From Candidatus Latescibacterota bacterium (lineage in GTDB: Bacteria; Latescibacterota; UBA2968; UBA8231): 64,000 bases of DNA. The stretch covers positions 2,688,001 to 2,752,000 of the forward strand of contig OZ241362.1 of assembly GCA_965200315.1 (NCBI GenBank), given 5' to 3'. The notes under the pieces were generated by a model. The model was not told the DNA's origin and searched no databases. It saw nothing but the letters and a program-made list of their open reading frames with translations. Shown piece after piece: positions 42,784 through 64,000 of the stretch. How positions within the stretch are numbered: the stretch's first letter is position 1; every line of letters begins with the position of its first letter. The position numbers and the translations under genes were made by a program.

Positions 42784-43079
42784 TCAAGCCGCCGCAGGCC
42801 GGCTATCACCGGCTCCATTGGGAGGGTCGCGACGACGCAGATCGTCCCAGCGGTGCTTACCTATAAGGCTAGTGGCGGACGAGGTCGTCTTGACGCGCAG
42901 CTCACCCTGCTGCGGTAGCTTGACAAGTTCTAAAATCTAGAGGAACTGTTAGGAGAATAACTGAGGTTACGCATTTGGCCGAAGAGTGGTCAGTGGTTAG
43001 AGGCTGGAAGTAAGCCCCGGCCACATTCCCGTTTTTCTCGTCGCACGGCAGGGGAATGTAGCGACACACGGAAAGCGCA

Positions 43080-44015: not shown

Positions 44016-44020
44016 GGCAG

Positions 44021-44114
44021 GCCATTAGGAGTTACGAGTCGAGAATGGGGAATTAGCACTTGCCCAGCCATCCAAACCGAAGGGATGGCTGGGCCATTCG
44101 TAATTCCTAATGGC
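44021..44114. repeat. Nested inverted-repeat element upstream of rpn
   Basis: Outer arms GCCATTAGGAGTTACGA / TCGTAATTCCTAATGGC (16/17); inner GCCCAGCCATCC-9nt-GGATGGCTGGGC (12/12). Confidence 0.8.
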
Positions 44115-44128
44115 AATATCCATGCCAA
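44113..44128 (-). promoter_or_regulatory. Candidate sigma-54 promoter facing rpn
   Basis: Minus strand TTGGCATGGATATTGC has correct -24 GG / -12 GC spacing, about 100 bp upstream of the ATG. Confidence 0.5.
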
Positions 44129-44445
44129 GGCTGAAGAGTAGAGGGGCGGACCCAGGCCGCGCTAGGTGAGACTGTATCGGGAGCGACACATGGATGAGGC
44201 ATTAGGGATCAGACTGACCCGGAAGTCAAAAAAATGCGAGCGTCGCCAAAGCGACCTCCGTTTTATGGCCCTATATGCGGCCTGTCGCCTAGAGGGCCTG
44301 CGGATCAAACATCGACTCAATCCTTGAAAGCAAACTGCGGGTAGGCCCTCGAAAAGGAGATGATCCGATAACGCCAAGGCCACGGGCCCGCTCACACCAA
44401 GCAAGCCAATGGGGGGTTTCAGACCGCTTCTAAGGGGTCAGGCGA

Positions 44446-44658
44446 GTCCGGGCTGATTTAATGCTCGACCTGAAAAAGTACAGCGAAACTAGGGGGTGGA
44501 CCCAACGTCAAGCCGCGGCATTTTTTGGCGAGTCCCAACCACTCATTAGCAATTTAATGCAGGGGAGATTAGTCGTTTTAGTGTGGATAAACTGATTGAC
44601 ATGCTGACGCGAGCGGGGGTGCAAGTCGAAATTTACGTCAAGCCAAAAGCCTCTTAGG
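44446..44658 (+). pseudogene. HigA-like XRE antitoxin, 3' fragment with frameshift
   Basis: VRADLMLDLKKY...GWTQRQAAAFFGESQPLISNLMQG / ISRFSVDKLIDMLTRAG. Confidence 0.75.
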
Positions 44659-44699
44659 CAAAAGTTCAGAACAGGTTCTACGGGGTGGCGCACCCAAAC

Positions 44700-45470
44700 T
44701 CAGGCGAGGAGGGCTTCGACGTATTGGCGCGCGGCAATAGCCGCCGACAGCGGCTCGTTCCAATCGACCTCCTCAAGCTCGACGACGAGGGGGCCGTCGT
44801 AACCGCTATCCACTAACAGTTTGAATAATTCCGCAAAAGGCAATTCGCCCTCCCCGAAGGGCACGGGCTTTTCGCCTTGCTGGTCGCGCAGGTGGACGAG
44901 ACCAATGCGCCCGGCGAGCGCCTCGGCAAAGGGCATGATCGGCTCGCCGACCGACAGCAGATGGCCGGTGTCTAAAAGCACACGCGCCCGCTCGGGCAGT
45001 TCCGGCAGCACCGCTTGGTAGTCGGCTAGTCCTTGGAGGCGGTTGCCTTGGTGGTTGCCCAAGTTGAGGGCGATGTCGGGGATGTTGTCGAGGAGCGCGT
45101 TGACGCCTTCGATGAGGTCGGCGAGCGCCTCGTCTGTGCGGGCACCGCCCTTTGTGTTCAGGGTTTTGATGCCAAGGGCGCGGCCCAAGTGGATGTCCCA
45201 TTCGAGCTGGCGCAGGTTGTAGGCGAGGTTGCGCTCGTCCGAGTCGGCCTTGCGGCCGGTGAGGTTGCGGATGTTGAAGCCAGAAAGCGCTAGACCGGCG
45301 TCCGCAATGGCGGTGCGGACCATGGGCACGGACCAATCGCGGTGAACGGGGGTGCTCTCGGTGTACGCGCGGAAGAGTTCGACGCGGGCGAAGCCGGCTG
45401 CTTTGGCGAGGTCGAGCACCTCGGGCAAGAGCAGGTCTGGGCAGAGGGTCGGGCTGAAGACGAGGTGCAT
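44700..45470 (-). CDS. Sugar phosphate isomerase/epimerase
   Basis: AGFARVEL, LLDTGH, VHLRD, FGEGELPF, GYDGPLVVELE. Confidence 0.88.
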   Translation of the reverse strand: MHLVFSPTLCPDLLLPEVLDLAKAAGFARVELFRAYTESTPVHRDWSVPMVRTAIADAGLALSGFNIRNLTGRKADSDERNLAYNLRQLEWDIHLGRALGIKTLNTKGGARTDEALADLIEGVNALLDNIPDIALNLGNHQGNRLQGLADYQAVLPELPERARVLLDTGHLLSVGEPIMPFAEALAGRIGLVHLRDQQGEKPVPFGEGELPFAELFKLLVDSGYDGPLVVELEEVDWNEPLSAAIAARQYVEALLA

Positions 45471-47206: not shown

Positions 47207-47281
47207 TGGTGCTCCCACGGAGACTCGAACTCCGGTTACAGGGTTGAAAACCCTGGGTCCTAACCGCTAGACGATGGGAGC
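47207..47281 (-). tRNA. tRNA-Glu (anticodon TTC)
   Basis: Minus strand GCTCCCATCGTCTAGCGGTTAGGAC-CCAGGG-TTTTCAA-CCCTG-TAAC-CGGAG-TTCGAGT-CTCCG-TGGGAGCACCA; encoded CCA. Confidence 0.97.
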
Positions 47282-48768: not shown

Positions 48769-50574
48769 TTAATCCAACAGGGAAAATCCGGTGTAGCCGC
48801 GGCGGTCTTCCGCGCCTTCTACGCCGCCTTGGGGAAAGTATTCTGACCAGCGCCGGCTGACCTTTTGCGCCGTTTCTTCGTCCGTTATCAGCTCGTCCGG
48901 GTAGCCGGGTTTCATGCGGCAATCCAAGACGACCGGCGGCGTATAGCAGGGGTGGTGGCGACGGAGCTGGACGGCAGCGGCATAGGTGTCGGCCGCCGGC
49001 TCAAAGCGGGTAAAGGTACTCCAAAGGAAGGTGACGTTCTTGGCGGCTGCACTAGCGTCGTCAACCAAAAATATCAGCGGCCAAGCTGCGACAGCCCGGT
49101 CTGCGGCGAGGTGTTGGGCGTAGCCCGGATCTTCCGAGTACGTCGGTCCTTGCACCGCGAGAGCACCAGGGCAATAGACCGCGGCGGCGCGGGCCCCGCC
49201 GGGCAGATCGCCGCTTATTTCTCCGGGCAATTCGCCGACCGGATCGCCCACGCCTATAAGAATCCCTTTGCTGCCTTGGTTCACGGCCGGCCCCGTGTAG
49301 TCGAGGGTATCCATGGCGAGGTTGGCAATGACGAAAAGGTCGGTTGCGAGCCGCGTACGCGCTAGGGCATACGCGAGCACCTGCCGGAAGTCGCCCAAGT
49401 CCAAAGGGCGATCTATTACGACCAAGAACTTGGTGAGGTTGAGCTGGCCGCCGTCCTCTCCCAAGATGCGAAAGGCAAACTTCATGGCCTCGCGTGGATA
49501 GCGCTCCTCGACGACGATGGCCGCCAGGGAGTGATAGCCGGTCTCGCCGTAGCTCCACATGGCCTTGATCGCGGGCATTACCAGCTTGCTCAAGGGCGTC
49601 ATGAGTTGCTGGATGTAGGTGCCGAGGAACATGTCCTCCTGCGGCGGCTTGCCTACTACGGTGGCCGGGAAGATGGCGTCTTTGCGGTGGTAGAGGCGCT
49701 TGGCTTGGAGCACTGGGTAGTCGTGTTGCAGCGAGTAATAGCCGTAGTGATCGCCGAAAGGCCCTTCGGGCTTGCGCACGTGCGGCGGCACCACGCCCTC
49801 AATGGCGAATTCAGCTTCGGCGATCAGGGGCAGGCTAGTGCCCTGTACGCGACGCAGGCGCTCGCCCTGCAGCAGGGAAGCCAAGATTAGCTCGGGCAAG
49901 TCCTCGGGCAAAGGCGCGATCGCTGCGAGGATCAGTGCCGGCGGCCCGCCGACGAAGATGACCAGCGGCAGGTCTGCGCCCCGTTGCTCGGCGACGTGAT
50001 AGTGAAAGCCGCCGCCTTTTTGGATTTGCCAGTGTACGCCGAGGGTCTGGGCATCGTGGCGCTGGATGCGGTACATGCCGAGGTTGTGATGGCCGGTGTC
50101 GGGGTGTTCGGTATAGACTAGCGGCAAGGTGATGAAGTGCCCGCCATCCTCGGGCCAGGTTTTGAGCAGGGGCAGGTGCGCAAGGTTGGGCGGCGACTGT
50201 ACACACTCGCCGACGGGACCTTTGCCGACGGTCTTCAACCCGACCTTAAGCGCGGCCGGGATCAGGTTTTTGTGCGGCCAGAGCTTGCCCGGCGAGAGCG
50301 AAGGCAGGTCTTGGGCGAGTTGCACGAGCTGTTGGATAAACTGCTCCGGCCTAGGGCCAAAGGCCAGCTCGACGCGGCGGGCCGTGCCAAAGAGATTGGT
50401 GACGCAAGGAAAGTCTGCGCCTTCGACGTGGGTAAAGAGCAGGGCCGGACCAGCGGCCGCAAGGACGCGGCGGTGGATCTCGGCGATTTCGAGATCAGAG
50501 GAAACCGGAGCGTCCACAGTGACGAGCTCGCCTTCGCGGCGCAGGAGGTCGAGGAATTGGCGCAGGTTGTGCAT
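48769..50574 (-). CDS. UbiD family decarboxylase (probably menaquinone/futalosine pathway type)
   Basis: WPEDGG, NLGMYR, PEGPFGDHYGYY, DTLDY. Confidence 0.92.
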   Translation of the reverse strand: MHNLRQFLDLLRREGELVTVDAPVSSDLEIAEIHRRVLAAAGPALLFTHVEGADFPCVTNLFGTARRVELAFGPRPEQFIQQLVQLAQDLPSLSPGKLWPHKNLIPAALKVGLKTVGKGPVGECVQSPPNLAHLPLLKTWPEDGGHFITLPLVYTEHPDTGHHNLGMYRIQRHDAQTLGVHWQIQKGGGFHYHVAEQRGADLPLVIFVGGPPALILAAIAPLPEDLPELILASLLQGERLRRVQGTSLPLIAEAEFAIEGVVPPHVRKPEGPFGDHYGYYSLQHDYPVLQAKRLYHRKDAIFPATVVGKPPQEDMFLGTYIQQLMTPLSKLVMPAIKAMWSYGETGYHSLAAIVVEERYPREAMKFAFRILGEDGGQLNLTKFLVVIDRPLDLGDFRQVLAYALARTRLATDLFVIANLAMDTLDYTGPAVNQGSKGILIGVGDPVGELPGEISGDLPGGARAAAVYCPGALAVQGPTYSEDPGYAQHLAADRAVAAWPLIFLVDDASAAAKNVTFLWSTFTRFEPAADTYAAAVQLRRHHPCYTPPVVLDCRMKPGYPDELITDEETAQKVSRRWSEYFPQGGVEGAEDRRGYTGFSLLD

Positions 50575-50960
50575 GGGCGGCCGTCGAGTGGTTGTTGATG
50601 ATTCTGAAATATATTAAACTCTACCCGCCCAACCAGCACCCCATTTTTGCTTTGCCTCCTCCCATGTCCAGACGAACCTGATAAGGAGGAGACCGTTCTA
50701 GGGAGCGCACGAGATACTCACTCGGACCTATTTTATCTGGGCGGAGTCTGAAAAATTACAAGGTCGAGACGACTCCGCACGGGACCTGTTGCACGATGCG
50801 CTCGCACTGGAAGCGGCCGACCCACGTCTCTATGTCGCCGTTGGTCACAGATACTACGAACTACAAAATTTTTTGTAAAATCAAGGAATTATGCGATTCA
50901 AGTGCCAAGCTAACAGCTACGCCGCGATAAGATGATTAGGGATGAGACGCTTCGACTCAA

Positions 50961-53036
50961 ATGACAGTGAAGGAACGGATTAGAGAAGCACAGATGGAAC
51001 TTAGAAAAAGGAAAATGACTGCACAATTCTGGCGATCTAAAGGACTTAGCGTTCGTGCATCCAATTGTCTGTCAATGGCAAACATTATAGACGAACAAAA
51101 GCTAATCGAGAAAATTACAACTCTTGATTGTCTGCTTGCTCTCAGAAATTGTGGCAGACAAACAGCCGAAGAGGTCTGGACATTTATCACAAACTTAAAG
51201 TCTGCCCCCGACTACGATCGGGGACCAGAAGTTACATCATCCGATCCGAGCGATGAATATTTTACAGAATTGCAATCGATCTTCATCCCTCTCCTAAACA
51301 CAGAAATATCTGCCCATACATGGAAAGCTCTTCAAAAGATTCCGGTCAACAGTATCCGTTGGAGCGTTCGGACGCAAAATGTGATTAATTGGCAAAGGTT
51401 GCAATCACTTGCTGAGGTTGCCGAATTTTCACCGAGAAAATGGCTGAGTTTTAGAAATTTTGGAAGTACCTCTTTGACAGAACTCCAAGAGTGCGTGAGC
51501 GAAACAATTGAACAACTTCGATCTAATCCTGATATGCTTGATCCGGGTGATAGACATCTGGGACAAAAACCTAACCATTTTGTTAAAACGCAATCGGTCT
51601 TTATTCCCCTCCTAAACACAAGAGTATCTGCTCATACATGGAACACTCTTCAAAACAGTTCTATCCGTCAATTCACATGGAGTGTTCGGACACAAAATAT
51701 TCTCCTTAAGCAAGGCTTCAAAACGCTTGCGGAGATTGCCGAACTCTCTCCCCAAAAATGGCTCATATTTAGGAATTTCGGACGCAAATCTCTGATTGAA
51801 ATTCAGGAAACAGTAGATAAGGTCATAGCAAATCCTGATGTGCTTGATCCGAACAATGACCGTTCTAATGAATTACCGCAGATCCAGACACTTTCCGAAC
51901 TCGGTCGCGTGGTTTTTCAACGTCTGCAATCCCGCCAACAGGAGATTGTTAAGTACTACTATGGTTACGAGGAAATTCCTAAAAATTTACAGCAAATCGG
52001 CGAATTACTTGGAGTTAGCCGTGAGCGAGTCAGGCAAATTAAGCAGACAATCAATAATAAAATTAATCAAGGAGAGGACAATCACTTAATTACAACCACG
52101 ATCTTCTGTCTTTTGGGCAAATCTATCCACGATGTTCTAGCAAAGGATGGTGGGTTCTGTTCTGTCGAAAGCCTCCAAGAGATTATTCACCAGCAGTTGG
52201 GATTGGGAGATAACGAACAGTGGATTATCGACTGGTTTAATGAAGCATTCGGTGAGACGTGGATATACTTGGGGATAGACGAGTACAAAATTGTTGATGG
52301 TGTTTTTCTGCTAAAATCAGGAGACCCTGTTCAAAATTTTTTAGCACAACTTACTCTGAGACTCCAACGTTACGGTTATCGACCTTTGACATTGAAAGAA
52401 TGTCAACACCTCATTCAGAAAATGGATGGATCGATGTACGACTGCGACAGCAGTTCAATAGCTTTTGATTCAGATCAGTTGATCAACGTGATTACAAGCT
52501 ATCCTAGCTTAAAAGTCTATCAGTATGGAGAAACACTTATCGGGTCAAAGGCATGGACGTGGTTCAATCCTGAAAAGCCAACGACAGCGTCTCTCGTCGA
52601 ATGGTATCTCCGAGTGGTCAATGAACCCGCCACGGCAAAAGCAATTGCCAATGGAATATGGAGAAAACTTGGTAATTTTAGGTTGATGCCTTTTGATATT
52701 GCTGAAATCTGCGAAAAACAACCGTACCTCTTTCAAGTTGATGATAATGGTGCTTACGGTTTGAGCCTTTGGAAGGAAGCCACAAAAAACCAGCAAGTCC
52801 TCACAGAGTTGCTGTCAGATAAACCGTTACCTATTGAGCAGATTGCAGAAGTGTTATCCCTCAAGAATCTAGAAGAGACGACGCTGATTGTCGCAACCTT
52901 GAATTTTTATACAGATTCGTTTGTGGAAGTGATGCCTTTCGAGTGGGCATTAAAGCCACAGATGGACAGAATCGAGATGGAAACAGATTTTGATTATACC
53001 AATCTCACTTTTGAAGACTTGATGCCTAAATTATGA
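50961..53036 (+). CDS. Protein with three RNAP alpha-CTD-like domains, a sigma-70 region 4 HTH and C-terminal winged-helix-like domains
   Basis: LSVRASNCL...RNCGRQT, WSVRTQN...RNFGSTSL, WSVRTQN...RNFGRKSL; LQQIGELLGVSRERVRQI. Confidence 0.85.
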   Translation: MTVKERIREAQMELRKRKMTAQFWRSKGLSVRASNCLSMANIIDEQKLIEKITTLDCLLALRNCGRQTAEEVWTFITNLKSAPDYDRGPEVTSSDPSDEYFTELQSIFIPLLNTEISAHTWKALQKIPVNSIRWSVRTQNVINWQRLQSLAEVAEFSPRKWLSFRNFGSTSLTELQECVSETIEQLRSNPDMLDPGDRHLGQKPNHFVKTQSVFIPLLNTRVSAHTWNTLQNSSIRQFTWSVRTQNILLKQGFKTLAEIAELSPQKWLIFRNFGRKSLIEIQETVDKVIANPDVLDPNNDRSNELPQIQTLSELGRVVFQRLQSRQQEIVKYYYGYEEIPKNLQQIGELLGVSRERVRQIKQTINNKINQGEDNHLITTTIFCLLGKSIHDVLAKDGGFCSVESLQEIIHQQLGLGDNEQWIIDWFNEAFGETWIYLGIDEYKIVDGVFLLKSGDPVQNFLAQLTLRLQRYGYRPLTLKECQHLIQKMDGSMYDCDSSSIAFDSDQLINVITSYPSLKVYQYGETLIGSKAWTWFNPEKPTTASLVEWYLRVVNEPATAKAIANGIWRKLGNFRLMPFDIAEICEKQPYLFQVDDNGAYGLSLWKEATKNQQVLTELLSDKPLPIEQIAEVLSLKNLEETTLIVATLNFYTDSFVEVMPFEWALKPQMDRIEMETDFDYTNLTFEDLMPKL

Positions 53037-54697
53037 AAGAGTTACATCGCATGATCTTGCCACAACACCAACAACCCATAACCGTTCGACTTGCGCGGAA
53101 AGAGGACATTGATGACGCGAAACGAATCGCAGACCAACATCGCTTGGAATTGGGGTTTGTCAGTATCGCTGTTTTACGGGCTGCACAAAGCAAAAGATGG
53201 CTACTTGTTGCTGCCGAATGGGAGGATAAGAGAAAATGTGATGTGGTCGTCGGATTTGCAAACTTTCGAATCAGACAGGACCGAAATGCAACTCTGTACG
53301 AAATCGCAGTAGCTGATACACATAGGTGCACAGGTGTCGGCACTCGCTTGCTGAGTGAATTAATTCGACGTGTTCACCTCGCCGGCGGGCAATATGTTCG
53401 CCTCAAATGCCCACAAGATCTGAGTGCCAATCAATTTTACCAAAAACGCGGATTTCGATATATAGAAACGGAGCAAGGCAAAAAGAGACGGCTCCAAGTA
53501 TGGTCCTACCGCATACCCTCAATGCACGGGGCAGACGTAGCAACTCTCCCGATTACCTCGTCTAGCTCTGTGGTTAGTAAGCAGGGTTCGCGGCGACTCA
53601 TCGGATGGGAGGGCGAATCCCTCACACCCGCGTATTTCTACGCCTCCCTGACTGTCAAACCAGATGAGATGAGGACATTGCACCGCCTCTGGCATAAACA
53701 TGCACACGACTTTGATTGGAAGTTCGGTAAACCGAATCCATTTCAACGAGTACTCATCTCTCCTGTCGTCGCTCACAAGTACACCTTTGATTTCGTCCGC
53801 GAACTGAAACGGACAGGTGAGACGGAAGTGGTCATGTTTGATTCTGGTGGCTATTTCGTCCAGAAAGGAGATATCTCTTATTACGACCTGCATCGAAAAC
53901 TCTATGACCGCTATCAGCAGGAGGATTGGGCGGATATCTACGTTCTTCCAGATAATCCACCACTTAGCAAAGATTCACTGAGTTCTGCGGAAGCAAAGAT
54001 AAAACAAACTGTTGAAGGCAGTCTGCTACTTCACGGGGACCTTCCTTACGCAATTCAGCAGAAAGCGATGCCTGTCGTTCACGCAACGAGAAGTGAACAT
54101 CTCGACTATTGCCTGCGACAATACACCAATTTTAAGAAAATCGGTTTCGGCTCATTTCCAACAAGCGGAAATTCAGACTCTATCAACCGATTGAACGTCG
54201 ACGCACTGCTAATTTTACAACAACTGACTCTGATGCTAGATTCTGAGGGTGTTAAACTACATACCTTTGGTATTTCAACACCACCTGCAATTTATCTGCT
54301 ATCATTAGCCGGTGTACATTCTTTTGACTCTAATGGTTGGATGCGGTCTGGTGGATATGGCAAGATATTTCTCCCATTTATGCGAGGTTATCTAGTTACT
54401 TTTAATTCTCGAAAAAATAAGAACTTGAATGAAGCAGAATTCAAATTATGGAAAGAAAATATAAAGCATGATTGTCCATTCTGCGGTTCTTTTGATCGGC
54501 TTTCAAATAATCGGTGGGATCGAATTATGCACAATCTGATAGTTATGTCAGAGTTAGAAACACATCAGAGGATACCCCAAACGGATATGTTACGAGAGCT
54601 ATCAGAAACGTACTATCGTATGTCGCAAAGCATACATAATAGGATAGGTGAAAGTTTTAACGGAGGATCTATTCTATGGCACGCTCGCACATTCTAA
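53033..54697 (+). CDS. GNAT acetyltransferase fused to a tRNA-guanine transglycosylase (TGT/DpdA)-like domain
   Basis: GNAT: LYEIAV...RCTGVGTRLL, ANQFYQKRGF; TGT: MFDSGGY, LPDNP, PVVH, LHTFG, SFDS, zinc site HDCPFC...HN. Confidence 0.85.
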   Translation: MKELHRMILPQHQQPITVRLARKEDIDDAKRIADQHRLELGFVSIAVLRAAQSKRWLLVAAEWEDKRKCDVVVGFANFRIRQDRNATLYEIAVADTHRCTGVGTRLLSELIRRVHLAGGQYVRLKCPQDLSANQFYQKRGFRYIETEQGKKRRLQVWSYRIPSMHGADVATLPITSSSSVVSKQGSRRLIGWEGESLTPAYFYASLTVKPDEMRTLHRLWHKHAHDFDWKFGKPNPFQRVLISPVVAHKYTFDFVRELKRTGETEVVMFDSGGYFVQKGDISYYDLHRKLYDRYQQEDWADIYVLPDNPPLSKDSLSSAEAKIKQTVEGSLLLHGDLPYAIQQKAMPVVHATRSEHLDYCLRQYTNFKKIGFGSFPTSGNSDSINRLNVDALLILQQLTLMLDSEGVKLHTFGISTPPAIYLLSLAGVHSFDSNGWMRSGGYGKIFLPFMRGYLVTFNSRKNKNLNEAEFKLWKENIKHDCPFCGSFDRLSNNRWDRIMHNLIVMSELETHQRIPQTDMLRELSETYYRMSQSIHNRIGESFNGGSILWHARTF

Positions 54698-55518
54698 AAG
54701 GGTTTTCGGATTTGGAGTCGGCGTTGTGGGTCCACAAATACCACCCTGGCCTTACAACAATCCGCCAAATGGTCAAAAAGGCTCTGGAAAATGGATACTC
54801 CGTAACTGATACAGCACGTTATGAAGCTGTTCAGCTATTAAGCGAATGGGGATTCGCAGATGGAAAAAGTAGGTCACTAACCCTCGAAGGCGAAGTATTT
54901 TACTACCTGTGGGAAACAAAACGAAGCACCGCGATTGATTTTCTGCACGCACGGCAATATAGTCTATGGGCACAAAGAGCCCCAGATCAAAACATTGCGT
55001 CGTGGGCGTACAAAAATATCTGTGACTACCTGTGGACACAGCAAACGCTTCCGGATAGAGATCAGGATCTAGTGGCTTACATCAATGACCTTCGAACTTC
55101 CGACAAAAATGTGATTCCGCCAGCAAATATAGGCAATGCGTTTTCCAATAAGTCGATCAATGACGCTTATGATTGGCTCCTGCCGCTGGAACCACCTGTT
55201 TTAGTGAACGGCGAGGTCGACGGTAAGGCACTTAAGGACGCTACATTTTCACAACGAGCATTTTGCTCAACACCGCTTTTTGTGATGGCACTCGGTTATA
55301 TTGTGCGAGAATCTGACACAACATTTGGGGATTTAGTCAAAATTGACTACACGCGAAAACAAGCCGCTTGTCGCTTCTGTCTGATCAACGAAACTGGCTT
55401 CGATCTCATGCTCGACGAGGCGTTACGCCAAGTTTCGTACCTGTCAGTACAGAGAGATTGGGACGGAGTTTATATAGTGTTAAATCAAATACCGGAGATT
55501 AGGGATTTTATTAATTGA
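54676..55518 (+). CDS. Putative BrxA-like winged-helix DNA-binding protein
   Basis: 280 aa, GGAGGA RBS, L..WGFAD.....LT.EG wHTH-like pattern; identity inferred mostly from context. Confidence 0.5.
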   Translation: MARSHILKGFSDLESALWVHKYHPGLTTIRQMVKKALENGYSVTDTARYEAVQLLSEWGFADGKSRSLTLEGEVFYYLWETKRSTAIDFLHARQYSLWAQRAPDQNIASWAYKNICDYLWTQQTLPDRDQDLVAYINDLRTSDKNVIPPANIGNAFSNKSINDAYDWLLPLEPPVLVNGEVDGKALKDATFSQRAFCSTPLFVMALGYIVRESDTTFGDLVKIDYTRKQAACRFCLINETGFDLMLDEALRQVSYLSVQRDWDGVYIVLNQIPEIRDFIN

Positions 55519-55529
55519 AAGGATTAAAA

Positions 55530-56009
55530 TTGAATACACAGGTTTTGAGTGTATATGCGGATACGTCCGTTTTTGGTGGCGCATTCGATGAAGAGTTTCG
55601 TCAAGCCAGTCAGTCCTTTTTCGATATGGTTCGCCATGGACATTTTAACCTGTTGACATCAGTAGTGGTGCAAGAGGAGATCGAGTCTGCCCCTGCGGAA
55701 GTTGTAACACACTTTGAACAGATGCTCAACTTTGCAGAAATTGTAGAGATTTCTGAGAAGGTTTTACAACTCCAACAGGCTTACTTAAATGCGAAAATTG
55801 TGCCTGAAAAATGGGCAGCGGATGCTCTCCATGTTGCCTTAGCCACTGTAGGAGGCTGCTCGATGATTGTAAGTTGGAATTTCAAACATATCGTGCATTT
55901 TTCAAAAATTCCGCTATACAATGCGGTAAACACACTTTCTGGATACTCAAATATCGCGATCCATTCCCCTCAGGAGGCGATCAACTATGAAAACGAAGAA
56001 GACGTTTGA
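55530..56009 (+). CDS. PIN-domain toxin
   Basis: VYADTSVFGG, EEI, DALHVALA, VSWNFKHIV. Confidence 0.9.
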   Translation: MNTQVLSVYADTSVFGGAFDEEFRQASQSFFDMVRHGHFNLLTSVVVQEEIESAPAEVVTHFEQMLNFAEIVEISEKVLQLQQAYLNAKIVPEKWAADALHVALATVGGCSMIVSWNFKHIVHFSKIPLYNAVNTLSGYSNIAIHSPQEAINYENEEDV

Positions 56010-56166
56010 TTGCGTTGAGATGAAACGTCGTGGCGCAGAACGAATCTACAATCAAATCGCAAGCATGACGCTCAGAGAACAACTAGCTTTCTGGGAAGAA
56101 CGTACCGAGTTGCTGCGAAAGCATCAGAAAACGATAAAAGTGAGACGCAAAATATCTGTGAGTTGA
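55987..56166 (+). CDS. Small partner (putative antitoxin) of the PIN toxin, 59 aa, absent from the ORF track
   Basis: MKTKKTFDCVEMKRRGAERIYNQIASMTLREQLAFW...; AGGAGG RBS inside the PIN gene. Confidence 0.8.
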   Translation: MKTKKTFDCVEMKRRGAERIYNQIASMTLREQLAFWEERTELLRKHQKTIKVRRKISVS

Positions 56167-56705
56167 ACCCGATGCTCTGGCAATCTTATCATCGAAAACT
56201 TCTCGCGTTAGCCGAAACTAGTGAGACTTTGACGACCTCTCAGCAGGAGGTCTGTCAATTTTTGCGGCAGGAAATCGGAGACTATCAGCAACGTATCAAC
56301 CTTTGGGGACTCCCGGGGGTTGGTAAAACATTTCTCGCTCACTATTTTCACCACTATGCAGATGGTCTCTATTTTTCATCTACGGAGAGTTCTCTAATCA
56401 CAGAAGTTTCCCCAAAGTCAGTGGTTATCATTGATAACGCACCATCTGACCGGAGTTTGGCGCGGTCGATCTTCGGGGAGATGCTTTGGGCTAGTGCGTC
56501 GTCGGTAATTTTGGTGACGTGTCAACCAATTGATGATGCGGTTCAGAGGATTGAGTTAGATCTGACAGATAGAGATATGGCACAAGTTGAGGGCGTAATG
56601 CGTAAACTTTTCGCCTATTCGCCAGTTGATAAGGTGGACAATTTTGAACGCCACCGCTCGGGGATTTGGGGACAACTCAAAGCTATGGCAGAACACGCCA
56701 TATAA
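56163..56705 (+). CDS. Small P-loop NTPase (BrxB-position protein)
   Basis: INLWGLPGVGKT (Walker A), VVIIDN (Walker B-like). Confidence 0.75.
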   Translation: MNPMLWQSYHRKLLALAETSETLTTSQQEVCQFLRQEIGDYQQRINLWGLPGVGKTFLAHYFHHYADGLYFSSTESSLITEVSPKSVVIIDNAPSDRSLARSIFGEMLWASASSVILVTCQPIDDAVQRIELDLTDRDMAQVEGVMRKLFAYSPVDKVDNFERHRSGIWGQLKAMAEHAI

Positions 56706-56753
56706 GATAAGACATAATCAGGCTGCGGCTTGAGCAAAGAGAGGAGATAACAC

Positions 56754-59700
56754 ATGGCTTTGGACGAGATTATTCAGAAAAATGTTGTGGTTGACACGCC
56801 TAGTGCTTCAGACCTCGCGGCGAGACCAGATGAATGGGCCAATCGTTTTCAATTTCACGTCTCAACGCACGTCGCGATTGCCGATATGACCGATAAGTGG
56901 GATGCAATTCTCAAAAATATCCTGCGAGGGCGTTCAGCAACCGGTCTCATTCATGCCGATACAGGATACGGCAAGACCTCAACAGCAGCCTCATTCTGGC
57001 ATTATGCGGAACAACGGAAAATTGTCACAGTTCCACCTTTCGCCTGGAATAGCATCGCCGACATGCTTATCGCAACTCATGGATGGGTCTGTCATCGTTT
57101 AAAGATGAAGAGGCCAGATCTAATTGCCGATCTAGAACAGCAGTATAAGACGCTAATTGAAAGAAGCGACGAAGACCGTGCCCGCAGAACCAGTCAAGAA
57201 GAAGATATTCCGCTCGATCATACCAGACGGGTTGTTCAGTCGCTCAAAGCGAAAGGTGATATAACTGATTCCATCTCCGCGAACCGCCTCATTGACTACC
57301 TACGGAAGGCAACAGCAACGCTTCTTGAGGCAGATTACAAAGGATTGCTTATTCTGCCGGATGAATTCGAGCTTTTTGCCAATACGAATCCAGACATCGC
57401 TAAGAACTTTGCTGAACTCAAGGATTTTATCTTCCCGATTTTTCAAGAAGCGAATCTTCCAATCGGCTGTGTTGTTCTGACCTATCGCCGAACTTTTTCG
57501 GAGATCCAACTCAGAGAACCTTACATATTTGCACGCTTCAACAAGCCTGAAGGAAGTTTGATTGATCTCGAGCAAGCGTATGGAAAAATTGAAAACGATA
57601 GGTCTTTTGCCCACGACCTTTGGGAAAAATTGTCCATTCAGTGCAATCTATCCACCGAGGAACAAAAGGCGATTGATCAGGATGTGCTATTTGCCCTCGG
57701 ACAGTTTTTGGGACACCAACGCACAACACAACTCATTAGTGGCCCCCGATCGGTTGTTGCGACATTCCGGCGAGCTGCCATTCGCTACACTGAGACGCAA
57801 CAGACGTATTCAATTTTCGATTTTTGCGAAGATTATATCTCTCAGGGAATTATCTGCTTCAATAACCAAGAAACCGATGCAGTCAAATCTCATACCTCAA
57901 TCATGAGCCAACCTATTATCGGTGCTGACGAAGCAAAGCAGAAGTTGGTTAAGCTCCTGTGCGTCTGTCCAGATGGCGTACCAGAAGTACTTTTCAAGAA
58001 GAACGATATTTCCGATAAAGACCGCTTGGCAGTTGTGGAGGGATTATTAGGGACACATGTTATTACAAAAATTGTCGGACCAACATTGATCCACTATAAA
58101 GATGATTTACAATCAGGTGATGCACTCATTGAGCTTCTCAAAGTTCTTCGGAATCAGTACAATCCCGCAAGCGCAGAAACACATCGCGCTGCAGTCAGGT
58201 CATTTGCGAATTTCATTCTACCCGAAATCTTCTCACAGACTATTGGAGCATCCTTTACGGGTTGGGGAGGATTAAAAAAGATGGAAGGGGATATCGAACC
58301 GACCTATCAGGCCGCGCTGTCAGGGACATCGATCCGAGATTATCCAGATCGGACACTGACTGTACATGTTGGCACTGAGGATTTCCAAGAGATTAGCGGT
58401 CCCTATCGTGAAAGTCAGTTGTTCGCCTCTTTTATTTTTTTGACTCAGCCCGGTGATACCACAAATACATGTGATGTTGACAAAGATGGTCTCTATTTTC
58501 AACTCAACATATCCGAAGCGATCGACAGACAAGAAATTCCAAGAGATATTGGCAAACTCGGCGATCTCTTTCTGCCGGAATCTGTTACCCCTTCGCTACT
58601 CTTGTCGATGCTTGACTTCTTTGAGAAAGAAACGACTATCGACCAGATGAAGGAGTTAAAACAGGAAGCGCAAGTGCAACTCTTGAAATCCCGAATTTAT
58701 GACCAATTGATCAGTTATTTCTTCTCCACTGAGGTCAAGGAGAGTGCCGTATCACAGCAGGCAGATTTAGCACAAGTCCCAGCGGGAAAAAGTTTTGCCG
58801 AACGGGCTTTAGGTGTACTGATGCGGAAAAAGTTTAAATCATATCGTGCCGTCGCAATCTCTCATCAGTGGCAAAAAAATTTGAGGCTCTACATACAGAC
58901 CCTGAGAGACGCTGAAAGCCTCGGTGTGAAACGGGGCGAGGAACCTATCAAAATGATTGGCAGAGATGTGCCGGGGAGGTTCAATGTTGGTCAGCATACC
59001 ACTTTCTCTAATACCTTCTATCCAGACGGTATTTTGCGTGACCTTTTGCTCGTTAATGAACTTGACGTCAATGGTAGAACTGTAGCAGAAAGTGTTGAAG
59101 TTAAAAACAATCAGGGTCCCGTTGCTGTCTATTTCAAACGCCACGACATGGAAGAGCGCATTTTGAAGACGCTTGAGGAAAGCACGGAAAGCATCGTTAT
59201 TGATGGCAAGCATACCAAAGCAATGAAATGCCATGAAATTTTCCAGCAGGAAGCGAGTCTTGGCTATCTCAATGATGAAATTGAGGAGTTAATCAAAGTA
59301 TTGAAAGCAAGGGGATTGGTTGATCAAAAACAGTACCAAGGGATTGATTATCTATATCGTGTTGAAACAGAAATCAATTTTGCCGAACTGCAACGCAAGA
59401 TCGAACGACTTGAGGAACTGGAGGCACTGGCGAGTTCAAAAGGCTTTACTCCGGAAAGGGAAGAAGATAACTCGTTATCATCGGCTCAGGCAGATTTTCA
59501 GACAATCGGAATTGAGTCCGATGAAGTTCGCAAAGATTCATTACGGCAAAAACTCAATGCGATTGAGGACGCTTTCTCAACGCAGTGTGGGGGATGGCTG
59601 AACACCGAAATGAAACGAGCCGATCAAAAACGCTATGAAATTGAGCCGTTGCGCCTTGATGTTCCAACAGTACTTGATGAAATGACGGGACACCCATTGA

Positions 59701-60836
59701 CAGAGTTTTCGACGCTCCTGTTTAATGATATTCGCAGTGAGGTCAAAAAGGCGTACACAATGCTCTCTGGTCAGGTTTCCGCTTTACAGAATGAAGTCAA
59801 GAATACACTGAACGAAAAGCTCCAGAGCTACAAGGCGGATAGCAGTCCTGAAAAAGCAATTGATGTTGCGGCACAACTGCGGGTCTTCTGCGATGTGATT
59901 GACACAAAAATCAATGGATTGCGAACTTCCGGGAAAGAAGCAGAGCAACTTTACACGTCTTTTGAAAAATGGCGAACGCTTACCAGACAGATCGAAAGCA
60001 ATCGCTTGACGATGAGCGAAGCCCAAGCCAGTGACGCCCTCGACAATCTTATTGATCGATTAGACAATGAACAGCAACAGATCAAAAAACATCTCGCCAA
60101 CCGAGCATTAAGACTGAGCCAAGTGCTTGAAAATCATGAACACTTCACCAAACGATTTACAGAAATCAAGGAGGAATACAACCAGATTACCGAAAATCGA
60201 AAAGATGAGTTTATTGAGTTCCAAGGGATGATTGAAACAGAACTCGTCAAATTGCTTGACACGCCGCATATCGGAGAACCCTACAATCCGTCAGACGAAG
60301 ATGGTGCTTATCGCCGTGTCCGCGAGAAAGCAGTTGAAAAAATTCGTGAATCTTTTATCAAACGCGCAATTCAAAGAATTGCAGCAATGAAAAACGAGTT
60401 GATGAAACCAATAGAGGTTTTCGACGTCGAGCCCAATGTCAAAAACGATGCTATAGATTTGAAGAAAAAGGTCTCAGCATTAGAAATTCAAATTAGTCGA
60501 ATCGATCAGGAACTACAACCGAAAGAGATTGAAGAACAATTGCCCGATTTTGTTCAGTCCTTACTTACAATGAGAGAAGAAAGCACAGAGTTGATGAATC
60601 AATGGGGAAGTATTCAAGGTCAGCTAAGACGTGACAAAAATGAGTTGAGTCATAGGGCGAGAGTACTGTTGGACTTGGTTGAAACAAACACAGACAAAGA
60701 TTTCACAGAACTGATTATTGCTCTCAGGCAGCCTGAAAACAAAATGTTTAGTTCGACGACGGAGATTATTGAAAGCCTCGAAGAATTATACCAATATAAT
60801 TGGCTGAACATCAAAGTCTCACGCACAACATCATAA
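56754..60836 (+). CDS. Large BrxC/PglY-like ATPase with coiled-coil C-terminal half
   Basis: ADTGYGKT, LLILPDEFE, FARF, GPRSVV; long heptad-rich region; GAGGAG RBS; directly upstream of PglZ. Confidence 0.75.
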   Translation: MALDEIIQKNVVVDTPSASDLAARPDEWANRFQFHVSTHVAIADMTDKWDAILKNILRGRSATGLIHADTGYGKTSTAASFWHYAEQRKIVTVPPFAWNSIADMLIATHGWVCHRLKMKRPDLIADLEQQYKTLIERSDEDRARRTSQEEDIPLDHTRRVVQSLKAKGDITDSISANRLIDYLRKATATLLEADYKGLLILPDEFELFANTNPDIAKNFAELKDFIFPIFQEANLPIGCVVLTYRRTFSEIQLREPYIFARFNKPEGSLIDLEQAYGKIENDRSFAHDLWEKLSIQCNLSTEEQKAIDQDVLFALGQFLGHQRTTQLISGPRSVVATFRRAAIRYTETQQTYSIFDFCEDYISQGIICFNNQETDAVKSHTSIMSQPIIGADEAKQKLVKLLCVCPDGVPEVLFKKNDISDKDRLAVVEGLLGTHVITKIVGPTLIHYKDDLQSGDALIELLKVLRNQYNPASAETHRAAVRSFANFILPEIFSQTIGASFTGWGGLKKMEGDIEPTYQAALSGTSIRDYPDRTLTVHVGTEDFQEISGPYRESQLFASFIFLTQPGDTTNTCDVDKDGLYFQLNISEAIDRQEIPRDIGKLGDLFLPESVTPSLLLSMLDFFEKETTIDQMKELKQEAQVQLLKSRIYDQLISYFFSTEVKESAVSQQADLAQVPAGKSFAERALGVLMRKKFKSYRAVAISHQWQKNLRLYIQTLRDAESLGVKRGEEPIKMIGRDVPGRFNVGQHTTFSNTFYPDGILRDLLLVNELDVNGRTVAESVEVKNNQGPVAVYFKRHDMEERILKTLEESTESIVIDGKHTKAMKCHEIFQQEASLGYLNDEIEELIKVLKARGLVDQKQYQGIDYLYRVETEINFAELQRKIERLEELEALASSKGFTPEREEDNSLSSAQADFQTIGIESDEVRKDSLRQKLNAIEDAFSTQCGGWLNTEMKRADQKRYEIEPLRLDVPTVLDEMTGHPLTEFSTLLFNDIRSEVKKAYTMLSGQVSALQNEVKNTLNEKLQSYKADSSPEKAIDVAAQLRVFCDVIDTKINGLRTSGKEAEQLYTSFEKWRTLTRQIESNRLTMSEAQASDALDNLIDRLDNEQQQIKKHLANRALRLSQVLENHEHFTKRFTEIKEEYNQITENRKDEFIEFQGMIETELVKLLDTPHIGEPYNPSDEDGAYRRVREKAVEKIRESFIKRAIQRIAAMKNELMKPIEVFDVEPNVKNDAIDLKKKVSALEIQISRIDQELQPKEIEEQLPDFVQSLLTMREESTELMNQWGSIQGQLRRDKNELSHRARVLLDLVETNTDKDFTELIIALRQPENKMFSSTTEIIESLEELYQYNWLNIKVSRTTS

Positions 60837-61984
60837 ATAAAGCGAGGCGTGAGTTGGATGGGTTAATTAAATCTCTAAAGAGATCCCCGTGTCTGATAAC
60901 TTTGCCAAAGAAAACGCAGGGACTGTGGGATATATGCCTGTCTGGTATTTGGCAGCCTATTTCGTTATCAGAGTGGAGAGGTGTTATTGATGCGCCATGG
61001 GAAGTTCCTACACAAGCGACACTTTTTGTGAATCTTCCAGAGGCTGAAAGCAAAGAGTTAACAGAAATTTTCGGTTTCCCCACGATTGATCTCCCTGTGG
61101 TTCCCCCAATCGAATGGGTGAATCAGAAACTGCCCGATCATTTTAGTGCCTTATGCACAAGCGAATCAAAGCTCTTAAAACAGTCGCAACTCGTCCAGAT
61201 CATTACAGACCGCGTATCATACATGCTTCCCGACATCGTGATTTTTCTGGTACTCGATGGTCTATCATTGTATGATGTCACAGACTGGATATTCCCGGAG
61301 TCTTGGCGCGTAGTGTGTGAGCCATGTCTTGTTGATGGACTAAGCATCACATCAAGCGGCATGCGTCGGTTAATCGGGTCACCACCCTTAACACATCGAT
61401 TGTTTGCGTTAGGATATGTACAGCGACTTGGATTTTCGTATTGGGAACGCTCCCAAAATCAGCTTACCAATGTACTCTTTTCCGAATTTCCACCGAGTCA
61501 AATGTTTCGCTTCACAACCTTTGAAGAGATTTTAAATAGATTACAGAATACGGACTTACCCAACCGAACGTTCATCCAAATCGTCCGCACAGGACTCGAC
61601 GGGGTCTGCCACAGTCATAGAGAAAAACCAAATATAGACGCGATGCTTAGTCAACTTAAATTGGATATTGAACAAATTTCTGAGACAGTTAGTTCATCTC
61701 AGAAAACCGTGCGAGTTTTTATAACTAGCGACCATGGAATTCTTTGGTTCACAGAACAAAAAGTGACGCCATTTAAATCGGGTAGTGCTTCCGCTCGTTA
61801 TACTTATGCGAAATCTTCACCTGATGTGTCAAGAATCACTATTGCTGAATCTGGAGAGACGTTTACAGTTTTAATAGGTGATGAAATCATCGCTAGAAAC
61901 CGGAAGGGGACGGAATGGGGATTTCACGGTGGAATTTCTGCACGAGAATCTTTCGTTCCGTTATTTGATATTACTCCTAAATGA
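60800..61984 (+). CDS. pglZ: PglZ-like alkaline phosphatase-superfamily protein (start may be TTG 60854)
   Basis: FLVLDGLS, LSIT, LDGVCH, FITSDHG, FHGGIS..E..VP. Confidence 0.85.
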   Translation: MAEHQSLTHNIINKARRELDGLIKSLKRSPCLITLPKKTQGLWDICLSGIWQPISLSEWRGVIDAPWEVPTQATLFVNLPEAESKELTEIFGFPTIDLPVVPPIEWVNQKLPDHFSALCTSESKLLKQSQLVQIITDRVSYMLPDIVIFLVLDGLSLYDVTDWIFPESWRVVCEPCLVDGLSITSSGMRRLIGSPPLTHRLFALGYVQRLGFSYWERSQNQLTNVLFSEFPPSQMFRFTTFEEILNRLQNTDLPNRTFIQIVRTGLDGVCHSHREKPNIDAMLSQLKLDIEQISETVSSSQKTVRVFITSDHGILWFTEQKVTPFKSGSASARYTYAKSSPDVSRITIAESGETFTVLIGDEIIARNRKGTEWGFHGGISARESFVPLFDITPK

Positions 61985-61996
61985 TAGGTGGTTCAA

Positions 61997-63205
61997 ATGG
62001 CAGAGGTCAACTTGCGAATCGGCACGGAACACGAAAGCGGCGAATTGATCTATATGAATGCAACAGGATCACGTGCCGTCTTCATCTGCGGCAAGCGCGG
62101 TTCTGGCAAAAGCTATACGATGGGCGTCATCGTCGAAGAGCTATTCAACCAAGAACAAGACGAGGCAACAATTATCATCGCCGATCCAATGGGAATTTAC
62201 CACACGATGGCTTTGCCGAACCAAACCCAAGCAGATGAAGTTCTTCATGCCGGATTCCTTACTAGCGGCTTTCCAGTTCGGCTCATTGTCCCTGGCAATC
62301 CTTTGATTCGGTACGGCGATGCGGTGGTACTTGCGAAGCTGCGAGAGAACGGTGTCGAAGTTGTTCCACTCCAAATTAACGCCGCAGATATCTCGCCCGA
62401 GGCGTGGTGTGAACTATTTGACATTGGCATGAACGAAGTGATGGGGATTGTTTTGGGGAGAGCAGTTGATACACTTCTCGAAAAAGACCAGCATTTTATT
62501 ATTGATGACATCCTTGAGACAATCGATAGAGACCCAAGAGCGAAAGACACCTCTAAAGAAGCTCTGGAAAACCGTTTAATGGCGGCGAATAGGTGGGGTA
62601 TCTTTGCAGAAGAACCCACCTCATTGAATAATGTGTTTCTCTTGAACCATATCAATGTTTTAGACCTAAGTGTGATTGATGCGGGTACAAAAGGACTGCG
62701 TAACATGGTACTTGACGTTGTCTCCCGCCGTCTTTTCTCTGAACGAACCCGAGAAAGACGTAGAGAAGAATTTGGTTTGTCAACGAAGCTACCGCGGGTT
62801 TGGCTGGCGATTGACGAAGCTCATCAATTTGTGCCGAAAGGACGAACCTCGCTCTGTAAGGAAATGCTCATTCGTTGGGTGAAAGAGGGACGTCAACCCG
62901 GTCTCAGCCTCGTCGTAGCGACGCAACAGCCGGCCGCGATTGATCCTGAACTGTTATCACAATGCGACGTCATTATTGCTCACAAAATTACGACTTGGGA
63001 TGATATCAATGCACTTGACCGACTGAGTGCAACGTACATGGCGGGAAACTTAAAAGGATACATTCGCAACTTAAACCGCAGAGGTGAGGCTCTATTAGTT
63101 GATGATGAAACCGAGTCTGTTACGACAATTCGAGTCCGCCCGCGATTTAGTTCGCACGGCGGTGCCGAAATTCAAGAAAAGACTGTGCGAAAATTTTTAT
63201 TTTAG
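61997..63205 (+). CDS. HerA/FtsK-superfamily (DUF87-like) ATPase
   Basis: GKRGSGKSYT, IADPMG, LAIDEAH, EGRQPG, ATQQP. Confidence 0.9.
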   Translation: MAEVNLRIGTEHESGELIYMNATGSRAVFICGKRGSGKSYTMGVIVEELFNQEQDEATIIIADPMGIYHTMALPNQTQADEVLHAGFLTSGFPVRLIVPGNPLIRYGDAVVLAKLRENGVEVVPLQINAADISPEAWCELFDIGMNEVMGIVLGRAVDTLLEKDQHFIIDDILETIDRDPRAKDTSKEALENRLMAANRWGIFAEEPTSLNNVFLLNHINVLDLSVIDAGTKGLRNMVLDVVSRRLFSERTRERRREEFGLSTKLPRVWLAIDEAHQFVPKGRTSLCKEMLIRWVKEGRQPGLSLVVATQQPAAIDPELLSQCDVIIAHKITTWDDINALDRLSATYMAGNLKGYIRNLNRRGEALLVDDETESVTTIRVRPRFSSHGGAEIQEKTVRKFLF

Positions 63206-63241
63206 CGTCTAACTCACGCCCCCATCCCCGAGAGGTTTTCC

Positions 63242-64000
<759 letters not shown>

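Follow-up and report, generated by a model that had tools for sequence, protein, structure and literature searches.

The closest described counterpart of the locus studied here is BRC ('BREX-Related Capture'), a class defined in 45 taxa by Rakesh & Krishnan (Nucleic Acids Res 2026, PMC12839542; preprint 10.1101/2025.10.09.681413). The main text of that paper lists seven components, namely PglZ, a BrxC-like AAA+ ATPase labelled DUF6079, a small active STAND NTPase, a DUF4007/BrxA-like protein, HerA/FtsK, a GNAT and a TGT, and describes the large ATPase as an ORC/Cdc6-type AAA+ protein with BrxC architecture, the NTPase as BrxB-homologous, the DUF4007 protein as a tripartite DNA-binding protein, HerA/FtsK as universal and PglZ as stand-alone and short, with an N-terminal 'inactive Swi2/Snf2' part. 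In the same text the GNAT is occasionally fused to the TGT, DpdB and DpdC are lacking, the modification is 'perhaps restricted to dPreQ0 alone', and this hybrid of BREX and base-exchange logic is proposed computationally, with no experiment reported (PMC12839542). We analysed a window of 64,000 nucleotides (positions 2,688,001–2,752,000 of the single-contig, 5.36-Mb, 94.7% complete genome of a Candidatus Latescibacterota bacterium; GCA_965200315.1, contig OZ241362.1) holding a low-GC island of nine genes (g1–g4, g4b and g5–g8; Table 1). Judged by its gene content, the island is a member of the BRC class, which is known computationally only, and it is a BRC-kind island with a fused GNAT-TGT protein (g2), a sigma/alphaCTD component (g1) and an accessory PIN cassette (g4 and g4b).

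We consider it probable that the island encodes a BRC-class anti-phage or anti-plasmid system, similar to restriction-modification but without a methylase, in which a 7-deazaguanine base would serve as the self-mark and PglZ and HerA as the effector. The likeness to BRC, as presented in the main text of the published account, extends to the same seven-part composition, the occasional GNAT-TGT fusion, the lack of DpdB and DpdC, the occurrence in both archaea and bacteria and the same proposed logic. The differences are that GNAT and TGT are present in 31 of 31 complete loci here, where that text says 'a subset', that an alphaCTD-sigma4 or other sigma-type protein (22/31) and an in-operon QueF (8/31) go unmentioned in it, that the DUF6079 and DUF4007 Pfam models miss the island proteins, and that the island copy has an extra PIN cassette. 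An earlier reading of the window, made from the sequence alone, had pointed to comparative-genomic reports of BREX/HerA/Dpd composites; these are in print as BRC with essentially the same hypothesis, and the composite itself can accordingly no longer be called new (PMC12839542).

Homologues of the island genes were found together well beyond the host. When species-representative genomes were scanned with g2, 11 loci were recovered, in Latescibacterota metagenome-assembled genomes (MAGs), a Gemmatimonadetes MAG, an Anaerolineae MAG, a Poribacteria MAG and an uncultured bacterium; g1, g2, g3, g5, g6, g7 and g8 are syntenic in 10 of them, the other (L012) being degraded, and the gene set is also syntenic in 20 further metagenome or plasmid loci. 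In a HerA-alignment scan of metagenome contigs, 542 of 600 candidate stretches proved to be relatives, and the best 80 loci were kept. Iterated hidden Markov models (HMMs) from each window protein were run on all open reading frames (ORFs) of the loci, and the resulting census leaves out HerA homologues of ≤38% identity (L061–L100), which have none of the partner genes and represent a different system, three loci of 44–47% identity without co-oriented partners (L058–L060) and 15 truncated or partial loci. The 31 complete loci, window included, span bacteria, a haloarchaeal plasmid and metagenomes, and contain TGT, g3-like, small NTPase, BrxC-like, PglZ and HerA genes in one order, the sole exception being L010, in which the small NTPase follows the ATPase. 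The GNAT is fused to the TGT in 13 of these loci, directly follows HerA in 16 and directly precedes the TGT in 2. This arrangement is far beyond chance, and the co-occurrence on which the sequence-only reading depended is borne out by the 10 syntenic genome loci and the six-gene core.

Within the phylum the large ATPase occurs in 10 of 168 genomes, the host's own included, with nine strong matches, and a tblastn search of plasmids with g6 returned three records. In one of these, a 124-kb plasmid from Haloplanus sp. HW8-1, the complete system is present in split form, in the order queC, queE and PTPS gene (divergent), a 123-aa ORF, TGT, g3-like, small AAA, BrxC-like, PglZ-like, HerA, GNAT and a QueF-family gene. 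A ~123-aa ORF without family match accompanies QueF-type loci more generally (five loci: L016, 5751–6122, and four metagenome loci). On Oscillatoria nigro-viridis pOSC7112.01 (L018, 6714–12891), a fused GNAT-TGT gene is accompanied by g3-like and g6-like genes, but genes for a small NTPase, PglZ and HerA are missing and a DEAD/DEAH helicase gene lies downstream on the other strand; this locus may be a reduced or alternative-effector variant.

Table 1 Features of the island. Positions are those of the window.
Feature	Position	Strand	Size	Content
Whole island	50583–63219		12,637 bp	low GC; present/absent within natural population
g1 ('A')	50961–53036	+	691 aa	alphaCTD x3, sigma-70 region 4, HARE-HTH-like segment
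g2	53033–54697	+	554 aa	GNAT fused to TGT/DpdA-like transglycosylase (assigned through relatives)
g3 ('W')	54676–55518	+	280 aa	matches no recognised family
g4	55515–56009	+	164 aa	PIN domain, accessory
g4b	55987–56166	+	59 aa	PIN partner, accessory
g5 ('S')	56163–56705	+	180 aa	small P-loop NTPase
g6 ('C')	56754–60836	+	1360 aa	BrxC-like AAA+ ATPase, long helical C-terminal region
g7 ('Z')	60800–61984	+	394 aa	short PglZ-type, alkaline-phosphatase fold (predicted)
g8 ('H')	61988–63205	+	405 aa	HerA/FtsK-type ATPase

The candidate writer of the self-mark is g2, which joins a GNAT domain (2.9e-11, aa ~56–150) with the RxxGxG motif retained (TGVGTR, aa 100) to a TGT-like domain (aa ~200–530). 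An exhaustive HMMER search for the TGT family yielded 208 cluster representatives at E ≤ 1e-3, and 84 of 150 listed representatives, mostly longer ones, were chosen for alignment. Among these 84, Pfam TGT matches 49, NCBIfam DpdA 40 and archaeal TgtA/ArcTGT 39, and 11 carry a fused GNAT. The family profile matches the archaeosine transglycosylase ArcTGT (1iq8, 2.7e-23) and the Salmonella DNA-guanine transglycosylase DpdA (7ui4, 2.2e-15) in the PDB, and the TGT domain of g2 is confirmed, at the profile level, through these relatives; a profile from close relatives only matched GNAT alone, so that broader alignments were required. Three residues of g2, D270 (FDSGGY), D307 (LPDNPP) and D432 (SFDSNGW), align with the three active-site aspartates, the first invariant and the other two nearly invariant among the aligned relatives, and the matching aspartates of DpdA act as general acid/base, base-recognition residue and nucleophile (PMC10164549). 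A Zn-site-like set, H479/C481/C484/H500, is also kept.

The effector would be formed by g7 and g8. A 20-sequence g7 profile has as its best PDB matches the solved PglZ structures 9zn5 (0.0046) and 9nv3 (0.023), followed by PglZ-domain response regulators, and Pfam PglZ is found in 3 of 120 listed homologues; a profile from close relatives only returned one irrelevant designed protein. The alkaline-phosphatase-type residues D153, G154, T184, H271, D311, H312, G313, H376, G377 and G378 are invariant in 20 diverse sequences, and we infer that g7 is an effector nuclease or phosphodiesterase. HerA, present in all complete loci, is the best conserved component, with 48% identity between g8 and its haloarchaeal (Haloplanus) orthologue; g8 matches Pfam DUF87/HerA (1.2e-17) and the PADLOC models HerA (5.4e-24), mad8 (6.3e-22) and DndH (3.1e-7), and both its Walker A (aa 35) and Walker B (aa 273) motifs are intact. 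In other HerA-based modules (DndH of DndFGH, Mad7/Mad8 of MADS, Sir2-HerA) the ATPase likewise lies beside an effector enzyme, but here the partner is PglZ rather than Sir2, DUF4297 or a Mad7-type protein, and no other Dnd component is present. Membership of MADS, an eight-gene mad1–mad8 set with methyltransferase and kinase (PMC13662399), was considered and rejected, as mad8 (6e-22, near full length) was the only PADLOC mad model matched.

Three further genes, g3, g5 and g6, are predicted to provide a scaffold. The largest, g6, matches Pfam AAA_16 (8e-5), and BrxC_BrxD is found in 8 of 18 diverse relatives (best 3.5e-6) and in the Haloplanus orthologue (2.3e-6), which is annotated as a BREX system ATP-binding protein. 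In hhalign comparisons with DUF4007, BrxA, BrxB and DUF6079 sets from the phylum, g6 aligned to DUF6079 with P=0.008–0.011 across the ATPase region, values that are only suggestive, against 0.3–0.65 for mismatched pairs. On profile evidence g6 is BrxC-related, as the sequence-only reading had proposed. No family in the libraries scanned matches g3, and its 95 homologues are without any Pfam domain; a profile from its close relatives gave 0 PDB matches. It is in all 31 complete loci, always after the TGT, the position of the DUF4007/BrxA-like component of BRC, and hhalign gave P=0.02–0.03 for DUF4007 and 0.007 for BrxA against 0.3–0.65 for mismatched controls, in a test where the BrxA–DUF4007 control pair itself failed (0.32). 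The small NTPase g5, again in 31/31 loci and at the position of the STAND/BrxB-like component, has Walker A (GLPGVGKT, aa 49) and Walker B-like (VVIIDN, aa 87) motifs and matches AAA_16 at only 0.008.

Loci elsewhere in the phylum that carry the DUF models themselves were examined as candidates and set aside: three DUF6079 loci in relatives and the DUF4007 locus of the window genome (together L141–L144) are without TGT, PglZ and HerA of this type and represent other systems, with two marginal matches only, to g5 (2.5e-4) and g6 (4.4e-4). The DUF4007 gene of the window genome (5.8e-86; G000:C1:4310224-4311111, L110 and L144) adjoins a 1157-aa ORF in a multi-gene cluster that lies 1.6 Mb away and presumably encodes another defence system. 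At G102:C1:370658-377376 (L141), DUF4007 and DUF6079 genes are separated by 2 kb, with ORFs of 628, 935 and 618 aa after them; overall, DUF4007 occurs in 46 and DUF6079 in 22 of 168 phylum genomes. A g3-like and g6-like pair was also observed on Bacillus thuringiensis pKK1 (L017, NZ_AP014865.1, 8148–16962), directly upstream of a 1352-aa NERD and protein-kinase protein that has the domain make-up of the BREX type-2 PglW, with no TGT, PglZ or HerA of the island type; this neighbourhood links the g3/g6 pair to type-2-like BREX contexts.

The first gene, g1, is a conserved component of the system and not a mere neighbour, a g1-like protein being present in 22 of the 31 complete loci. In Pfam it matches RNA_pol_A_CTD three times (1.7e-27) and Sigma70_r4 (3.8e-10; aa 319–363), with weak matches to PADLOC PglW (positions 800–988) and NCBIfam MzaA, and its aa 545–604 (window 52593–52772) align to the HARE-HTH segment of the L043 homologue (Pfam HARE-HTH, 9.2e-8). 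HARE-HTH domains are associated with recognition of modified DNA. The g1-like proteins are modular: alphaCTD repeats with sigma region 4 are found in the window, L009, L035, L043 and L044, sigma-70 regions 2 and 4 in L023, L027 and L030 (the last matching the MzaA defence sigma model at 5e-53) and winged-helix arrays in L046, and most share the downstream segment that Pfam recognises as HARE-HTH in L043. This architecture suggests a variable DNA-binding or sensing subunit. The second and third alphaCTD repeats of g1 form a tandem duplication (window 51259–51851, 318-nt period, 70–80% nucleotide identity), which points to recent repeat expansion in a DNA-binding subunit. A ~200-aa ORF without family match lies directly before the TGT in three metagenome loci (L033, 1777–2400; L046, 1866–2381; L051, 145–747) and comes after the g1-like gene in two of them.

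The PIN gene and its partner, which the sequence-only reading had counted among the parts of the system, were found together in 2 of the 31 complete loci (the window and L007) and are accessory, outside the core. The PIN protein matches Pfam PIN_3 (7.4e-8) and has one distant paralogue elsewhere in the genome. Its 59-aa partner has no match in the family libraries scanned, is antitoxin-like by position only, and has an 85% identical copy in L007 and remnants in L004–L006; the pair may represent a toxin-antitoxin-like cassette acquired by the operon in a few lineages.

The island shares with canonical BREX the BrxC-type ATPase and PglZ, through weak but consistent matches, and the proposed sequence of self-marking and then exclusion; in addition, g1 resembles, over its alphaCTD-like segment, the central part of the type-2 PglW. 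It differs in having HerA, GNAT and TGT added, in a PglZ of half the size (394 aa, compared with about 740–910 positions in BREX PglZ models), in BrxA and BrxB being undetectable by sequence, and in the lack of PglX/BrxX and of a PAPS-reductase protein. Pfam, PADLOC and NCBIfam scans of the island ORFs detected no S-adenosylmethionine (SAM) methyltransferase, PAPS reductase, DpdB or DpdC domain, and no PglX/BrxX methyltransferase or type-4 PAPS-reductase protein was seen in the ORFs scanned at 41–51 kb of the window. With Dpd systems the island shares a TGT-superfamily enzyme with three active-site aspartates and a predicted dependence on the queuosine precursor pathway, whereas DpdB (a ParB-like ATPase), DpdC (DUF328) and the DpdD–K helicases and nucleases are absent from it; the DpdC family PF03883 is missing from the whole genome (94.7% complete). 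It further differs from Dpd in that the GNAT is an obligatory partner and in a QueF linkage toward preQ1 rather than preQ0/ADG. The sequence-only reading had described nine co-oriented, mostly overlapping genes in a low-GC block, with no SAM methyltransferase or PAPS reductase and a DpdA-like candidate modifier without DpdB or DpdC, all of which agrees with these scans. Its domain calls fared unevenly: the alphaCTD repeats and sigma region 4, GNAT, PIN and HerA are solid, TGT, PglZ and BrxC stand through relatives, and the winged helix it saw in g3 finds no library match.

Several observations weigh against identifying the island as a BRC-class DNA-marking system. The window's own proteins match weakly: the TGT match of g2 (Pfam, 0.0032) lies below the Pfam cut-off, BrxC_BrxD on g6 is sub-threshold (0.005), and so are the matches of g7 to NCBIfam BREX PglZ (8e-6 and 6e-5) and PADLOC PglZ (8e-4). 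Pfam DUF6079 matches 0/18 g6 relatives, Pfam DUF4007 0/22 and 0/20 members of the g3 family, and no homology of g5 to BrxB is detectable (hhalign P=0.11); in view of the DUF6079 and DUF4007 mismatches, the identity with BRC rests on the seven-for-seven composition and the archaeal-bacterial spread. PADLOC called no system on the island, in line with the sequence-only reading, which had expected no full BREX or Dpd call, and literature searches for experimental work, for GNAT-DpdA chemistry and on MADS/PglZ found no paper on the system other than the computational BRC one. The 31 loci are related and some are near-duplicates, so that their counts are non-independent. Island contigs are present in two metatranscriptome assemblies (X5 in all 30 bins, X6 in pieces), which is compatible with expression, but such contigs show neither transcription nor strand nor level, and DNA carry-over is possible.

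The TGT family profile is, moreover, closer to ArcTGT, a tRNA enzyme, than to DpdA, and a nucleic-acid target other than DNA is therefore possible. The transglycosylase could act on tRNA or another RNA, the operon then being a translation-directed abortive-infection or stress system, a reading to which the PIN RNase of the window copy would also lend itself. We judge it distinctly unlikely, because a canonical tRNA Tgt (544.8 bits) is encoded separately in the host genome, the TGT-like domain stops near aa 530 with no further domain match while the ArcTGT chain has 582 aa, the BrxC-like, PglZ and HerA partners are DNA-handling proteins and the PIN gene is missing in 29 of 31 loci.

The nature of the mark can be approached through its supply. 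A conserved ORF of ~130 aa, identified as preQ1 synthase (QueF) by NCBIfam TIGR03139 (4e-44 to 3e-23, with 2 of 4 tested exceeding the curated cut-off), lies in the operon in 8 of the 31 complete loci and in 2 truncated or partial ones; QueD homologues occur in 4 loci, and queC, queE and a PTPS gene flank the Haloplanus locus. QueF reduces preQ0 to preQ1. In four archaeal control genomes, Haloferax included, QueC matches were found in 4/4 and QueF in 0/4; since the haloarchaeal plasmid brings its own QueF into such a background, preQ1 rather than preQ0 appears to be needed. The host genome encodes QueF, two full QueC copies (G000:C1:1872553-1873164 and 3216619-3217227, one of them 7 kb from QueF) and a QueD-like gene, and bacterial hosts that already have the queuosine pathway would find an in-locus QueF unnecessary. 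A g1-like gene and QueF never occur together in one locus, and the sole locus with neither has only 776 nt upstream; 4 of the 8 QueF loci have <1.4 kb of upstream sequence, so that a g1 gene may sit beyond the contig end, and the exclusivity may be a lineage effect.

The primary aminomethyl group of preQ1 is an obvious acceptor for a GNAT. Outside the cellular loci, a GNAT and TGT pair was found alone, with a 4-nt overlap, in the replication module of the Thermocrinis Great Boiling Spring virus (BK013347.1; GNAT 1.6e-49 and TGT 5.8e-86 against the system's HMMs). None of the other records in a set of 50,697 from phages gave a match, and such a stand-alone pair fits a self-sufficient DNA-modification cassette. 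In this record (L168, 3953–5228) the 135-aa GNAT overlaps a 257-aa TGT-like gene; the Zn-motif part of the TGT matches immediately downstream in a different frame, perhaps through a frameshift or mis-assembly of this gene. Phage enzymes are known to methylate or formylate the preQ1 aminomethyl group in DNA (PMC10516641), and the phage DpdA1–4 modifications (dPreQ1, mdPreQ1, fdPreQ1), as described in the same paper, likewise combine a transglycosylase with QueF and an enzyme decorating the preQ1 aminomethyl group. The decorating enzyme is a methyl- or formyl-transferase in the phages, and in the island the candidate is a GNAT (acetyl or acyl) within a cellular defence operon.

The linkage to QueF favours a mark derived from preQ1 over a plain preQ0 mark of the Dpd kind, and we regard the mark as a 7-deazaguanine that is probably preQ1-derived and possibly N-acylated. 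More specifically, we tentatively propose, as one possibility, that the GNAT-TGT pair, fed by QueF, writes N-acylated preQ1 in cellular DNA as a BREX-like self-mark, the likeliest product being 7-(acetamidomethyl)-7-deazaguanine, the acetyl analogue of the phage fdPreQ1, with g1 supplying site choice or mark reading. A somewhat doubtful alternative is the same system with plain dPreQ0 as its mark, in which the GNAT would leave the base alone and have a regulatory role, acetylating a protein or small molecule. It accords with the modification 'perhaps restricted to dPreQ0 alone' put forward for BRC (PMC12839542), with the use of preQ0 by the nearest solved relatives, ArcTGT and bacterial DpdA (PMC10164549), and with the limitation of in-operon QueF to 8 of the 31 complete loci; however, those QueF genes, with the 2 in partial loci, include that of an archaeal plasmid from a host type that makes preQ0 and has no QueF, the universal GNAT, TGT-fused in 13 loci, argues for a shared pathway, and the virus keeps the GNAT beside the TGT without other genes. 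Alternatively, the GNAT-TGT protein could act on the invader, by base excision or exchange in phage DNA (7-deazaguanine-modified DNA included), or serve as a sensor of modified DNA. Phages do use DpdA-made deazaguanines against restriction (PMC6884629, PMC10516641), and the HARE-HTH segment of the g1-like component could be read in the same sense; this is nonetheless unlikely, as the linked queC, queD, queE and QueF genes imply that the base is made and supplied by the system itself, and the layout of modifier plus effector parallels restriction-modification, BREX and Dpd logic.

For the DNA-marking system that we favour, the following mechanism can be put forward, the catalytic motifs of the TGT, GNAT, PglZ, HerA and P-loop proteins all being intact by alignment. 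The host queuosine pathway would supply preQ0 and preQ1, and the TGT domain of g2 would exchange guanine in host DNA for a 7-deazaguanine base, with D432 as nucleophile and D270 as acid/base by homology to DpdA. The fused GNAT would act on the same substrate or product, most plausibly by acylating the preQ1 aminomethyl group. An ATP-dependent loading and scanning scaffold could be formed by g3, g5 and the BrxC-like g6, to which g1 would add DNA binding or sensing, and the HerA translocase would capture unmarked DNA for the short PglZ to cut or nick.

The island lies between a gene for a UbiD-family menaquinone decarboxylase (48769–50574, minus strand) and an aconitase gene (from 63242), ending 8 nt from the start of the former and 22 nt from that of the latter. 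Six of its eight gene junctions overlap by 4–37 nt, the other two being gaps of 48 and 3 nt, and its GC content is 0.41–0.50, against 0.57–0.66 (about 0.62) in the flanks. Contigs from two DNA runs, X1 (the possible source sample) and X2 (from another study), join 50582 straight to 63220, and the same runs also hold an island-bearing contig (50553–63249). This empty-site junction fixes the island ends, and together with the depths in X1 (island 97; flanks 167 and 161; joined form 56) it indicates that the island is carried by part of the natural population only. Four of the 11 genome loci (L002, L003, L004 and L006) have the island beside the same UbiD gene, three of them with the aconitase at the far side; across these, g1 (60–69% identity), g5 (66–81%) and g6 (68–76%) have diverged far more than HerA (91–93%) and the flanking genes (93–96%). 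The low GC, patchy distribution, empty-site allele and divergence of g1, g5 and g6 are the behaviour of a defence island and favour the reading as a defence system, and the spread across symbiont-type MAGs of several phyla, together with the within-population polymorphism, point to the island being actively exchanged, probably defensive cargo.

A non-defence cargo module, for DNA segregation, repair or mobile-element maintenance, is highly improbable by comparison with what these data indicate. HerA/FtsK ATPases do occur in repair and DNA transfer (the NCBIfam matches of g8 include repair HerA, CedD and VirB4), and GNAT-TGT lies on plasmids in two of three plasmid-collection matches, but domain library scans found no replication, transfer or integration genes among the island ORFs, the island sits in a chromosomal intergenic spot, and a HerA query of the IMG/VR viral contigs recovered no copy. 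To our knowledge, neither PglZ nor BrxC has been described outside defence, which also counts against such a module.

At the ends of the island, neither att-like repeats nor an integrase gene nor an adjacent tRNA could be detected, the nearest tRNA gene (47210–47281, minus strand) lying 3.3 kb upstream. Contigs of RNA run X5 and of DNA runs X1 and X2 diverge, with loose ends, at 63689–63691 inside the aconitase gene, a pattern suggestive of strain variants or of a paralogous gene within the community. Another, less pronounced GC dip (0.54–0.58) with sparse ORFs occurs at 42000–45000, where a 311-aa ORF (43080–44015, minus strand) and two others have no Pfam match.

The contribution of this locus and its relatives lies in the universal GNAT and TGT, the conserved g1-like component, the QueF and que linkage, the viral GNAT and TGT pair and the empty-site allele, comparative facts that sharpen the mechanism of the published hypothesis and leave room for a new DNA base. 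The class offers a compact operon of 7–8 genes in which to ask how BrxC/PglZ machines read a self-mark. Immunity of the BREX family has so far been tied to adenine methylation or, in type 4, to phosphorothioation. Confirmation of the mark would carry 7-deazaguanine DNA chemistry from Dpd systems and phages into the BREX family, and if the N-acyl-preQ1 reading is true, the product would be a hitherto undescribed DNA base and the first mark in the BREX family other than methyl or phosphorothioate.

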